Origin: an uncultured Chlamydiales bacterium
GTDB lineage: Bacteria > Chlamydiota > Chlamydiia > Chlamydiales > JAAKFR01
Direction of reading: 5' to 3'
Assembly: GCA_963705695.1 (NCBI GenBank)
Contig: CAVPKN010000026.1
Coordinates: forward strand, 16,138 to 80,137
Length of the DNA stretch: 64,000 nt
This document shows, piece after piece, positions 50,384 through 63,872 of the stretch. Below the pieces are notes generated by a model, which saw nothing but the letters and a program-made list of their open reading frames with translations, was not told the origin of the DNA and ran no database searches. A program made the position numbers and the translations under genes. The first letter of the stretch is position 1; each line of letters starts with the position of its first letter.

Positions 50384-51259
50384 ATGGAAAAAATCAGTCC
50401 GCGTGTCGATATTGCATTTAAAAAAATTTTTGGCGTTGAAGAGAACAAAGATCTCTTAATCTCATTGATTAACTCAATTGTTGGGCCTGAAGATCAGGTC
50501 AGTGATGTTATCCTTTTAAATCCTTATAATCCTAAAAATTTTAGAAACGATAAGCTTTCAATATTAGATATCAAAGCTCAGGGGAAAGAAGGGAAGCGAT
50601 TTAATATTGAAATTCAAATCAGTGATGAAGCTGACTATGACAAAAGAGCCCTCTATTATTGGGCAAAATTGTATACAGAACAGCTTAAAGCCACCGAAGA
50701 TTATGCTCTTCTGGCTAAAGCCATCGGAATCCATATCCTCAACTTTACTTCGATTCCTGAGGTGGAAAAGTATCATAATGTGTTTCATATTCGAGAACAA
50801 GAGAGTCATCTGTTCTATTTTAAAGATTTAGAGCTCCATACCATCGAACTAAAAAAGTTTGGCAATAGTCGTCAAGAGCTCTCAGATCTCATTGCCAAGG
50901 TGAAGACCTCTCTCGATATGTGGGCGGCCTTTTTAACGCGCCACGATCTACTGAGAAAGGAGCATCTTCCAGCTCCTTTAAACGATCCTTCTCTTCAAAA
51001 AGCACTCCATGTCTTAGATGTTATGAACTTTGGGCCCGAAGAGAGAGAAGCCTATGAGGACCATCTCAAATGGCTTAGAATTGAAACAAATACGCTGAAA
51101 AAAGCGGAAGACAGGGGACGGGAACTGGGAGTCCAGGAAGGACGTCTAGAGATTGCGAAAACAATGCTCCAACAAGGCTTTTCCATACAACAAGTGATTC
51201 AAATCACTGGACTTTCAGAGCAAGATGTTAAAGACCTAGCAAAAAATTTTCCAAGATAA
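50384..51259 (+). CDS. Rpn/YhgA-like PD-(D/E)XK nuclease family protein (putative transposase_31 family)
   Basis: 291 aa. N-terminal ..SPRVDIAFKKIFGVEENKDLLISLINSIV.., ..LSILDIKAQ..FNIEIQ.. (D..E.K core) and a C-terminal helical repeat ..GRELGVQEGRLEIAKTMLQQGFSIQQVIQITGLSEQDVKDL.. Confidence 0.8.
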   Translation: MEKISPRVDIAFKKIFGVEENKDLLISLINSIVGPEDQVSDVILLNPYNPKNFRNDKLSILDIKAQGKEGKRFNIEIQISDEADYDKRALYYWAKLYTEQLKATEDYALLAKAIGIHILNFTSIPEVEKYHNVFHIREQESHLFYFKDLELHTIELKKFGNSRQELSDLIAKVKTSLDMWAAFLTRHDLLRKEHLPAPLNDPSLQKALHVLDVMNFGPEEREAYEDHLKWLRIETNTLKKAEDRGRELGVQEGRLEIAKTMLQQGFSIQQVIQITGLSEQDVKDLAKNFPR

Positions 51260-51319
51260 AAAATATAAAACCCTTGCCCCAAATCTCTCTGTTGATAAAA
51301 TCTTTTTCCACAGAAAGAG

Positions 51320-54300
51320 ATGTTTTCGATGTCAGCGCCAGTCTCTGCAAAAAGCCCCTGGCTATTTAGCCCAACCCTCCTTGAGCGGATGCCCAAAGAA
51401 GCTAAACGGTTTCAAAAATGGGAGCTTCTCCCCACCGATCCCGAAATGGCTTCAGTCACCAAAGCTTTTTTGCATACAAAACCTCATCGATATGCCATTG
51501 CCAAAATCTACGCTATCCAGAATCCTGCCCATCTACAAGCTTTCGAAGCAGAGCTAGTCAACATCGAAGATGAAGCCACGAAATTCCTACCCCGGTGGAA
51601 AGAAGAAACCGACAGCGAATGGAAACAAGCGGTAATCCAGAGATGGCAAGAGCAAGTTAACCTGCAACCTCTTCAGCTCTCATTGGCAGGAGAGACCCTC
51701 ACCTTAGCCTCCACCAAAGTTCTTCTCGCCTGGCACGGCAGCAATCAAACTAAATGTGAATCGATCTGCATATCCGGCTTCACCTATTTTGGCAAACACC
51801 ACTACTTCACCAGCCAAGTCGGCGGAGGAGGAAGTACCTATAGCGGCTACTTTGGCAGCGGCATCTACTTTACCAATAGCGCCCACTACGCCTCCCTTTA
51901 CTCCGAAGGGCATCTTCTTCTTTCTTTGGTTTCGATGCGGGAGCCCTATCCCGTCATCAACGACGTCCCCCATCCTAAGAAAGGAAGTATGATGCAGCTG
52001 CTGGAAGGGAAGGGTGCATTTCAAAACTATAATGCCCACTTCATCCCCGTCGCCTCCCTAAATAACAAACCCAACTGCATAGAATGCTATCCCTGCTACC
52101 AAGACCAAAAACCAGACTGGGATGAAATCGTCGTCTTCCAAAGATCCCAAACCCTCACAAGGTTTTGGGTCGAGCTTACCCCAGATACACCCGCTCCTCT
52201 CCTCAAACAACCCTACACCTTTCAAGCCGCTTATGCAGCCTGCCAAAAAGGAGACCTCGATCTACTTAAAAGCTGGATCCAAGAAGACCCCACAAGACTC
52301 AAAGAACAAGGACCAGAAACCCTCTACCATGCCGCAGCTGCAGCCGATCAACTCCCCATCCTCCAATGGCTCCATACACAAAACCTCACCCTCTTCAATC
52401 AACTCCTCACCGATACTGCCTTTATCCTGAAACTCGCCACCCTACCCGCTCCCCAAATCCTCGACTTTCTCCTCGCACATGGCTTAAATCCCCAAACCAC
52501 CAACCCCTTCAAACAAACCCTTCTCCACATCGCTGCCCAAGCCGGACAAGAAGAGAACATCAACACCCTCCTCAAAAGAGGTGCCCCCATCGATGCCCAA
52601 GACCTTTCCAAAAAAACCCCTCTCTTCTTAGCCGTCCTCCAAGGCCACCGCACAGTAGTCACCCTCCTACACCAGAACAAAGCCCGTGTCGATCTCCCCT
52701 CCATCGAAGGAGAAACCATACTCCATGCCGCAGCCTTCTATGGCAATACCCCCCTCCTCAAAGAACTCCTCCAACTCCCCACCTGTCAGAAACTACTCCA
52801 TACCCCAGATGAAGATGGCAAAACCCCCCTCCACAAAGCTTGCTGGGGAGAGCCCAAACCCGACGTCGTTGCCCTGCTCCTCTCAGCAGGAGCCAATCCC
52901 AATGCCCTAAACAAATATAACTACACCCCCCTCCACTGGGCATCCAAGCATGGCCATGTCCACAGTGCTGAAGCCCTCCTCAAATACAAAGCCGATCCCC
53001 AACTCCTCAATGCCAATGGAGATCTCCCTGTCGATCTCGCCCTCCGCCACGGACAAGACGAAATCGTTCACCTTTTCCTTGGCACCACCAAACGTCTCCC
53101 AGTCCAAACCACGACAACAACGACCACGACCACGACAACCACCACAACAACGACGACCACCACCACCCTAACAACAACTCAAATTCATCCCCCAAAAGAT
53201 ATCCTCAAATACTATCAAGATTGTCTCATGGCAGCACATCGAGCAGGGTTCATTGAAGAGCAAATTTTGTATCTCGAAAAAATCAGTGACTACAATCTCC
53301 AAAACCAAAACTTTGTAGCGGCAGCGATGATCTTAAACGCTGCACTGGCCATTCTTAAAACCCACAAACAAAACACCCTCTTTGAAAAGTGCCTTCTCTC
53401 CCAAATGGAAAAAATCCCTGCCTTCTACCTTGAATCGCAAAATATCAAAACCCCTCCTTCCAAAAGAAATCAGCTTCAAGTTTATAGAGATTGGTTAAAC
53501 TTCAGTCGAGAAAGATGTCAGGATGCCTTTACCAAACAAGAACCCATTCATGAGATCTTGTATGACCTCACGCAAGAGACAAAAAAAATACTCAAACTCC
53601 TCATCTCGCAAGTCCAAGAACTTCTCGGTCAACCCCCAGTTCCCTGGACCTGCATCGCCATGGGCTCCATGGCACGAGGAGAGATGTGTCCCTATTCCGA
53701 TCTCGAATTTGCCTTCATCATCGCAAAAGAAACTCCTGAAGCCTTAGATTACTTCCGCAAGCTGGCCCGCCTTCTCCAAATCCATGTCATCAACCTAGGA
53801 GAGACCAAATGTGAGATCTTTGGTACCCTAGCACCCAGTCCCACCCCTAACGGCCTATGCATGGATACAGGAGGCAACATCCCCATCGGAGGAGTTTTTG
53901 AACTCATCGCCACCCCAGAAAAACTTGCCCAGCTCCAAAACTCCCGATGGATCGACGATAGCATCATCTTAGCTAATATTATGAATACTGTCTGTGTTGT
54001 GGCAGGGGAAACAAAACTCGCTGAACAATACCACAAGAAAAAATCTGAAGTTCAAAAAGTCAAAGCAGAGAAAATAAAAAATCGAGACAAACTCGCCCTT
54101 AGACTCCTAGCTGGCCACCTCCAAGAATTCTCCCCCAACCTCTCCAAAGAAAAAGAAGAATTCAAAATCTTTGGCATTAAACAAGAGCTCTACCGCCCCT
54201 TCCAAGAAATCCTCAGTAGTTTAGCCCTGTTCTACGAACTTAAGAGTACAAATACCTTTGAGCGGATCGATGAACTTGTTACATACAAAGTCTTCTCCCC

Positions 54301-62943: not shown

Positions 62944-62966
62944 AGCTTTTTAAAAAAATCATTACC

Positions 62967-63872
62967 TTACATCAGAGCATTAATCTCGTCTGCATGTAAA
63001 CCCGTAGCTGCTTGGATAGCTTCAATGCTCACACCCTGATTAATAAGTTGTTTAGCAATATGTAGCGTTGCGTTTTGGGTTCCTTTAGCAAAACCTATTG
63101 CTTCACCCTCAGCTCTCCCCCTTGCTTCACCTCTAGCTTCACCCTCAAGCACTTTTTGCTCATAAACAGCGCATTCATCCCGTTGCCTTTTGAGCTCTTG
63201 TTCATAGGCATCTAATTCCTTGGGAGTCCAAAAAAACTGGTTTAAGGCGCCGTAAGCTCTTTCCAGGATTGTATCGGTCCCAATGATCTCTTTTAAATCC
63301 TCTGGAGAGGTGTCAGGGGCATGTTTAAAAAAATAGGCCCATTTCTCTACGAGATTGGTCAACTCATGACTATTTTTCTTAAACTTAGGCAATTCTAAAA
63401 AACAGAAGTAAAAATCTTTGAGGTGATGGGCAAGGGTGTTTTTCTCTAAAATGACATGGTCTGACTTATATTCAGGAGTATCTGGAAACATGACAAAGTT
63501 GGTAATGGCCAGGAAAATGATCTCTTTTAGATTATGATAGGCTTCTCCCGAATTCATTTGATTGACATAGGCTTTAGCTGCGTAGTACTGAGCTCTCTTT
63601 TCAAATCCTCGTGTACTGGCCACTTGCATTTCGACAATATATTGATTCCCTTTTTCATCCGCACAAAGGACATCGACTACACTTTGTTTTTTGGCTGCTG
63701 CATCAGGATCTTGCGAAGGTTTTAGAAATGTGACCGTGGTCACTTTGGCCCCACCTGGAAAGGGGATCATGTCGTTGATAAAGTGGATTAGGATATCTTT
63801 ATTTTTCTCAGTACCAAAAATTTGTTTGAAGGCGAAATCATTTTTCGGATCGAGAAATTTGCCCATGCCCAT
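62967..63872 (-). CDS. Rpn/YhgA-like PD-(D/E)XK nuclease family protein (second copy, diverged)
   Basis: 301 aa with ..LDPKNDFAFKQIFGTEKNKDILIHFINDMI.., ..SVVDVLCADEKGNQYIVEMQV.. and a C-terminal ..EARGEARGRAEGEAIGFAKGTQNATLHIAKQLINQGVSIEAIQAATGL.. Confidence 0.8.
   Translation of the reverse strand: MGMGKFLDPKNDFAFKQIFGTEKNKDILIHFINDMIPFPGGAKVTTVTFLKPSQDPDAAAKKQSVVDVLCADEKGNQYIVEMQVASTRGFEKRAQYYAAKAYVNQMNSGEAYHNLKEIIFLAITNFVMFPDTPEYKSDHVILEKNTLAHHLKDFYFCFLELPKFKKNSHELTNLVEKWAYFFKHAPDTSPEDLKEIIGTDTILERAYGALNQFFWTPKELDAYEQELKRQRDECAVYEQKVLEGEARGEARGRAEGEAIGFAKGTQNATLHIAKQLINQGVSIEAIQAATGLHADEINALM

Follow-up and report, generated by a model that had tools for sequence, protein, structure and literature searches.

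Two unrelated Rpn-family nuclease genes lie in the inter-paralog spacers of a giant-gene array in an uncultured chlamydial bacterium

We analysed a 64,000-nucleotide (nt) stretch of an uncultured Chlamydiales genome (contig CAVPKN010000026.1, positions 16,138 to 80,137; hereafter the window), in which two genes of the Rpn nuclease family, rpn1 and rpn2, are interleaved with an array of giant paralogous genes. The listing of open reading frames (ORFs) and their translation agreed exactly with an earlier sequence-only reading on the coordinates of the two genes, their lengths (291 and 301 amino acids (aa)) and the gaps to their neighbours (60 nt from rpn1 to paralog B, 23 nt from paralog C to rpn2), and confirmed that Rpn genes bracket the two intact giant paralogs B and C. 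The order along the array is relic X, rpn1, B, a Sel1 gene with a possible resolvase relic, C, rpn2 and the leader of a putative paralog D:

49501..50183, minus strand: inverted internal fragment of the giant family (aa ~785–1008, nucleotidyltransferase (NTase) domain), with a frameshift; abuts relic X
50188..50274, plus strand: relic X, the last ~28 codons of a C-like paralog; ends 110 nt before rpn1 (tblastn of C residues 1631–1658, E=6.8e-4)
50384..51259, plus strand: rpn1, Rpn-family gene, intact (ORF listing and translation)
51320..56743, plus strand: giant gene, paralog B, 1807 aa, intact; Pfam matches PARP, Ank, DUF294, DUF294_C and TPR
56834..57505, minus strand: Sel1-repeat gene in the B–C spacer (Pfam Sel1, E=1.4e-20)
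57699..57787, plus strand: possible relic of a serine-recombinase N-terminus in the B–C spacer (weak Resolvase match, below cutoff)
57967..62943, plus strand: giant gene, paralog C, 1658 aa, intact; architecture as in B (Pfam matches)
62967..63872, minus strand: rpn2, Rpn-family gene of a different subfamily, intact; convergent with C, divergent from putative D
63947..63986, plus strand: leader of D, common to C (C copy at 57921–57966; blastn)
63987..64000, plus strand: putative start of paralog D, 14 nt within the window; leader and start codon like those of C
25600..30400, minus strand: paralog A, a giant gene frameshifted near 29990, with no adjoining Rpn gene (tblastn and three-frame translation)

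Relic X and the inverted fragment are additions to the map of the sequence-only reading. In translation, relic X (...EVDHPDVQWSQGWIDEIQVDLKQ) matches the tail of C (...AEHPDVQRTQKWVNTIQSKIQQ), down to the position of the stop codon, and the inverted fragment is 55–65% identical to A, B and C (tblastn). Relic X is the 3′ end of a fourth paralog directly upstream of rpn1, which places both Rpn genes in spacers between paralogs. Window positions 49403–52058 are matched at 99.9% by an independent assembly, Logan ERR10755948, which reproduces the relic–rpn1–B junction with the inverted fragment; the rpn1 junction is therefore not an assembly artefact. The allele in this assembly (locus L135) has (GA)4 where the window has (GA)5 at 51040–51045; the 2-nt deletion truncates rpn1 to 223 aa. 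Dinucleotide slippage could account for the truncated allele, as could a pseudogene variant or an error in the assembly.

The giant proteins B and C consist of a PARP-like ADP-ribosyltransferase domain, ankyrin repeats, a DUF294 nucleotidyltransferase domain and a long TPR region. The PARP-like domain has the motifs WHGS ... GIYFT ... DEIVVF, which we read as a predicted H-Y-E triad. B and C are 51% identical over their full length, and the paralogs of the window share 51–62% aa and 69–72% nt identity. The 1316-aa ORF of A is identical to database protein P0123. Homologues of the giant family occur only in metagenome-assembled genomes (MAGs) of Chlamydiae, often in many copies, and the window therefore derives from an environmental chlamydia of Rhabdochlamydiaceae-like type.

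Both Rpn proteins belong to a known nuclease family. They match Pfam PF12784 PDDEXK_2 (rpn1, E=2.5e-59, 201 bits; rpn2, E=1.9e-52, 179 bits; cutoff 27) and NCBIfam TIGR01784, named 'Rpn family recombination-promoting nuclease/putative transposase', with 188 bits (rpn1) and 157 bits (rpn2) against a curated cutoff of 52. The TIGR01784 matches span nearly the full profile (positions 1–272 of 273; for rpn1, 2–272). Neither protein matched PF04754, the E. coli YhgA family, at E≤0.001 in the Pfam search. Membership of the RpnA equivalog NF007361 was rejected at 22 bits versus a cutoff of 583, the match being confined to the last 46 residues of rpn1. Owing to these two results, the earlier designation 'Rpn/YhgA-type' is valid only at the superfamily level: the assignment to the Rpn nucleases stands, and that to the YhgA family does not.

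The PD-(D/E)XK motif reads as intact in both proteins, as D62...E76-I-Q78 in rpn1 and D67...E81-M-Q83 in rpn2. The catalytic residues of RpnA are D63, E82 and Q84 (PMC5350276), the correspondence being one of motif position and not of structural alignment. At the C terminus, rpn1 residues 243–282 match the RpnA-S crystal chain 7TH0 (E=0.004), and rpn2 residues 263–299 match it weakly (E=0.14). PF27070 HTH_Rpn_C is present in close Rpn homologues. Four-residue repeats (EARG/EARG/RAEG/EAIG) occur in rpn2, and the number of AEGI/AEGK repeats varies among the relatives of rpn1 in the chlamydial MAG CAWHVD; such variable C-terminal repeats agree with a published hallmark of the Rpn family. Judged by their sequences, rpn1 and rpn2 are apparently functional.

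A sigma-70-like match (9 of 12 positions, a chance-frequency score) lies inside rpn2 on the minus strand (63297–63268), ~200 codons into the gene and upstream of the C-terminal domain. This is the expected place for a predicted internal promoter of a small RpnS-type product. Promoter and terminator scans gave counts no higher than chance. Neither terminal inverted repeats nor target-site duplications flank rpn1 or rpn2; the only repeats present, 10–14 nt long and at chance level, do not flank the ORFs. The candidate role of Rpn as the transposase of an insertion sequence or transposon was rejected: the genes have no defined ends, and homology to their relatives stops at the ORF.

The two Rpn genes arrived independently and were not duplicated together with the paralogs. 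The sequence-only reading took rpn2 for a diverged copy of rpn1; the two are 31% identical and fall into different subfamilies. Rpn proteins evolve slowly, since rpn1 has relatives with 85–90% aa identity in other genomes; across genomes, rpn1-type copies are 65–90% identical. Comparison of the window with itself confined the DNA homology of the paralogs to their ORFs. The sole exception is the C/D leader (57921–57971 versus 63947–64000; 85% over 54 nt, E=2e-9), so that the shared leader reported earlier is real. D itself is a putative family member on the strength of this 54-nt match and 14 nt of ORF; the start codon and leader expected of a further paralog are there, and the remainder lies beyond the window. 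No homology block takes in an Rpn gene, and the duplication breakpoints in the window leave both outside. A repeat unit of Rpn gene plus paralog was accordingly rejected as a candidate here, there being no block of two or more copies that spans an Rpn gene and a family gene. Searches for Rpn relics beside A, B and C (protein search at E≤10 and short-word DNA search) found none, and rpn1 and rpn2 differ in orientation and in position relative to the paralogs. Because of the low identity, the lack of a shared block and of relics, and the ORF-limited homology of relatives elsewhere, the Rpn genes are not the marker of a duplicated unit in this window.

It is scarcely credible, then, that each Rpn gene of the window was copied as part of a paralog unit and that rpn1 and rpn2 diverged afterwards. 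Such copying did take place in CAWHVD, and the layout C(+)/rpn2(−)/D(+) resembles the family(+)/Rpn(−)/family(+) order at one locus of the family survey (L012). However, rpn1 and rpn2 are far more diverged than the paralogs despite the slow evolution of Rpn proteins, they point in opposite directions, they share no flanking homology, and A has no Rpn gene beside it.

Relatives in other genomes indicate the unit in which these genes travel. One relative of rpn1 (L001; 90% aa and ~85% nt identity) has an RsmD-like methyltransferase gene on one side and a MORN-repeat gene on the other, and its nucleotide homology to rpn1 sets in ~10 nt ahead of the ATG and stops with the stop codon. MAG CAVQHD (1.9 Mb) holds at least seven rpn1-type paralogs, and the two examined are both solitary among housekeeping genes; the repeated block there measures 1.03–1.06 kb, which is the ORF plus 54 nt upstream. 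Homology is thus approximately limited to the ORF, without terminal inverted repeats or target-site duplications, as expected of a single-gene unit. Published rpn genes are likewise gained and lost singly and spread horizontally; their ends vary, neither terminal repeats nor target-site duplications accompany them, and they probably do not encode transposases (PMC10400941), a description with which the ORF-limited homology and missing terminal repeats at rpn1 and rpn2 agree.

For rpn2, the best metagenome relatives are only 62% identical. Among 80 metagenome loci with rpn2-type genes, no family member was recognisable, and one short contig (L074) has a TPR tail beside the Rpn gene. Genes of the rpn2 and rpn1 types are adjacent on two metagenome contigs (L101, 472–2288; L103, 1018–3615), so different Rpn subfamilies can cluster. 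No gene flanking the window array is common to L001, L028 or other family loci. The MORN-repeat neighbour in L001 is an 850-aa gene, convergent with the Rpn gene with a 4-nt stop overlap (7507–10910), and a U-box+TPR protein is the neighbour in L021 (16262–19010).

We surveyed the giant family by taking one genome per species and aligning the non-TPR part of the protein. This yielded 42 loci, 21 of them from CAWHVD010000001 (2.58 Mb). In CAWHVD, tblastn detected nine Rpn features, of which five are complete or nearly complete genes and four are fragments. For eight of the nine, the end of a family gene is no more than 147 nt away. Against uniform placement in 339 kb of sampled non-family DNA, the nominal binomial probability is 2e-9, the events being non-independent. 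Queried with one of these Rpn proteins, the protein database gave only four rpn1-type proteins from this contig, in two clusters, and all four are at family junctions. The co-occurrence proposed in the sequence-only reading thus looks non-random, and the adjacency of Rpn genes to the giant family is probably beyond chance. It is quite improbable that the two Rpn genes merely fell into a variable region which the paralog array happens to share: they are only two, rpn genes are commonly multi-copy and mobile and accessory DNA is abundant in the window, but both sit exactly within inter-paralog spacers, and an equal adjacency recurs in the independent CAWHVD genome for eight of nine features and for every catalogued rpn1-type gene.

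The arrangement in CAWHVD is regular. A family gene (+) and an Rpn gene (−) converge with stop codons overlapping by 4 nt, and the Rpn gene diverges from the following family gene over a 130-nt spacer. The Rpn gene plus family gene form a unit of ~5.6–5.8 kb present at three loci (L019, L010/L134 and L017) with 94–96% nt identity and unrelated flanks; it ends within ~20 nt of the Rpn stop codon on one side and of the family stop codon on the other. One copy is flanked by NlpC/P60 on one side and by sigma-28/FlhF/FlhA-type genes on the other. Five further family members are followed, immediately past the stop codon, by relics of Rpn 3′ ends, 25–109 nt long. In CAWHVD, therefore, the convergent pair of giant gene and Rpn gene is a repeated unit, and the Rpn gene decays afterwards. 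The suggestion that Rpn genes mark the duplicated unit holds for this MAG and fails in the window. We found no convincing similarity between the Rpn–family spacers of the window and of CAWHVD that would point to a conserved target sequence.

Two further observations concern the surroundings of the CAWHVD copies. At L134 (1562852–1583766), family genes lie within a conserved flagellar or type III secretion system-like cluster, in the order ferredoxin, FlhB-like, family gene, FlhA-like (FHIPEP), FlhF-like, sigma-28, Rpn gene plus family gene, NlpC/P60, with intergenic gaps of 8–72 nt at the unit ends. A palindromic repeat of ~167 nt, resembling a miniature inverted-repeat transposable element (MITE) and folding into a single long hairpin (−76 kcal/mol), is present at many CAWHVD loci (for example L019, 8516–8682). 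It gave 72 blastn matches in ~480 kb of CAWHVD with both strands counted (~36 copies estimated), often flanking family genes; a copy in the window (25321–25491, 75% identical) lies just 3′ of paralog A.

The presence of the Rpn–family unit at three CAWHVD loci with unrelated, housekeeping flanks could mean that a giant gene with its convergent Rpn gene is a mobilisable cassette, of which C–rpn2–D and relic X–rpn1–B in the window would be independent instances from two Rpn subfamilies. We consider this distinctly unlikely. If Rpn did act in cis, by excision, copying, insertion or gene conversion, this would be the first evidence of an Rpn nuclease moving or diversifying cargo genes.

An active role for the nuclease was the other suggestion of the sequence-only reading. 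The Rpn endonuclease would cut at the junctions, and RecA-independent repair would duplicate, invert or shuffle the neighbouring giant genes. E. coli Rpn proteins promote RecA-independent recombination (PMC5350276), and the duplication of rpn genes may, as Zhong et al. speculate, begin with recombination set off by RpnL. In the window, an inversion or deletion breakpoint within family sequence (50183/50188) lies ~200 nt from rpn1; in CAWHVD, the repeated segments of three unrelated loci end within ~20 nt of the stop codons of the Rpn and family genes. The published recombination effects, however, needed overexpression, and about 20 loci without Rpn have expanded all the same, including the tandem pairs L009 and L016 and the arrays L036 and L044. 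Family genes without Rpn have also been dispersed as ORF-sized units in CAWHVD (L015 and L020), where Rpn genes erode after duplication. In the window, the paralogs are old by their nucleotide identity, whereas the Rpn genes are intact and mutually unrelated. Taken together, we judge the active role unlikely.

A further candidate is a functional partnership, in which Rpn and the giant ADP-ribosyltransferase–ankyrin–NTase–TPR protein would form a defence or conflict system, or an Rpn addiction module would guard the array against deletion. In two genomes, Rpn genes of two unrelated subfamilies take the same place, converging on the 3′ end of a family gene; Rpn systems are of the toxin-antitoxin kind and are over-represented in defence islands; and chlamydial Rpn neighbours are often effector-like repeat proteins, such as those at L001 and L021. 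Yet most family members have no Rpn gene, Rpn genes decay beside intact family genes, and many Rpn copies are solitary. The Rpn gene and the giant gene are on opposite strands and so are not an operon. PADLOC defence models matched the giant proteins in their repeat regions only and did not match the Rpn proteins. A partnership is very doubtful on this balance.

We favour, with moderate confidence, the reading that the Rpn modules are independently acquired, self-contained mobile units of toxin-antitoxin type that lodged at array junctions and were passengers during array expansion. The two Rpn modules were acquired separately, and each sits in an inter-paralog spacer of an old tandem array of giant genes; the family junctions would be places where such modules settle and are kept. 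An Rpn gene that has settled there would be carried along as the array expands; in CAWHVD the pair of giant gene and Rpn gene became the repeat unit, with the Rpn gene eroding later. By homology to published systems, the long form would be a nuclease toxin and its own C-terminal domain the antitoxin, and rpn1 and rpn2 may act here as toxin-antitoxin or defence modules. Insertion-tolerant sites or an addictive (post-segregational) effect are possible reasons for the preference for junctions.

Several points weigh against this reading. The ~20 family loci in other genomes, tandem arrays included, that have no Rpn gene within 10 kb make Rpn dispensable for family expansion. Rpn copies also occur away from the family, among the housekeeping genes of CAVQHD and at the 80 rpn2-type metagenome loci; at L028 the Rpn gene is 3 kb from the family gene, with two unrelated genes between. 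Because the CAWHVD adjacencies mostly derive from one ancestral pairing, independent association events are few, ~2–3: CAWHVD contributes about one, and the window adds two, from two Rpn subfamilies. Enrichment in the source organism is based on two genes only. The frameshifted rpn1 allele in an independent dataset suggests that selection on rpn1 may be weak. Lastly, the window is a plasticity zone with an IS256 transposase, a MITE-like repeat and other paralog pairs, and insertion tolerance of such a zone could explain much of the pattern.

This plasticity is apparent from features outside the array:

16355–17545: intact transposase gene of the IS256/Mutator family (PF00872, E=1e-110)
24848–24888, 33271–33319, 33400–33437 (inverted) and 41589–41638 (inverted): dispersed 41–50-nt repeat, 90–100% identical
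38305–39146 and 41808–42653: pair of paralogs with no relation to the giant genes; 854 nt at 83% nt identity

Several ORFs have the 41–50-nt repeat at their 5′ end or close to it; it may be a shared promoter or leader, or a small mobile repeat. Within the array, the serine-recombinase remnant noted earlier is weaker than it had appeared: after repair of one frameshift, it matches Resolvase profile positions 2–23 at E=0.013 (16 bits), below the cutoff, and a tblastn search of the window with the Hin recombinase did not detect it.

The PARP-like N-terminal domain of the giant proteins, ~290 aa long, is found elsewhere fused to WD40, Sel1, LRR, NB-ARC, SidE-PDE or kinase domains, and more than 15 paralogs of this head occur on one contig, a 511-kb JGI contig being among the examples. 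These varied fusions and the paralog number suggest a modular effector head domain. Some proteins with the domain are labelled at NCBI as from a Verrucomicrobia bacterium MAG.

Toxin-antitoxin cassettes interspersed in superintegron and genomic-island arrays stabilise neighbouring DNA. The Rpn genes resemble these cassettes in being small addictive modules scattered among deletion-prone genes of a repeated or accessory kind. Unlike superintegrons, the array has no integron integrase and no attC sites, and a stabilising effect of Rpn is speculation.

The closest known systems are the Rpn genes themselves, single-gene modules in which RpnL is a toxic DNA endonuclease and its own C-terminal domain, RpnS, the antitoxin (Zhong et al. 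2023, PMC10400941); overproduced E. coli RpnA–E promote RecA-independent recombination (Kingston et al. 2017, PMC5350276). Rpn proteins are widespread and were recently reclassified from 'putative transposases' to intragenic toxin-antitoxin defence nucleases. Like RpnL/RpnS and RpnA–E, the genes described here have a PD-(D/E)XK core with a D...E-x-Q motif, a conserved post-core extension and a C-terminal helical domain with variable four-residue repeats; they are multi-copy and patchily distributed, and their copies can be amplified through tandem duplication of genomic segments. Unlike E. coli RpnA–E (PF04754), rpn1 and rpn2 fall into PF12784/TIGR01784, and their host is an obligate intracellular chlamydia. 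They are interleaved with giant effector-like genes and not with other rpn genes or recognised defence genes, and are known here from sequence. As such, rpn1 and rpn2 add to a known family, ordinary in themselves and interesting for where they lie; our contribution is an observation of context, not a demonstrated or new mechanism.

Environmental Chlamydiae have lineage-specific expansions of eukaryote-like repeat proteins (Domman et al. 2014, PMC4209131). By a term search, the text of that paper contains neither 'transposase' nor 'mobile genetic'. Neither the interleaving of Rpn genes with a chlamydial giant-gene family nor the CAWHVD unit of giant gene and Rpn gene was found in the literature searched. 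Like the families of Domman et al., the giant family comprises large, repeat-containing, effector-like proteins, partly in tandem, with birth-and-death evolution that leaves pseudogenes and fragments. It differs from them in its PARP-like ADP-ribosyltransferase, ankyrin, DUF294 NTase and TPR architecture, in its occurrence in Rhabdochlamydiaceae-like genomes, and in the Rpn genes, which stand at the array junctions here and are part of the repeat unit in one MAG. As environmental chlamydiae enlarge huge effector-like families, this juxtaposition with Rpn genes offers a natural system in which to distinguish passengers from promoters or stabilisers of an expanding gene array.

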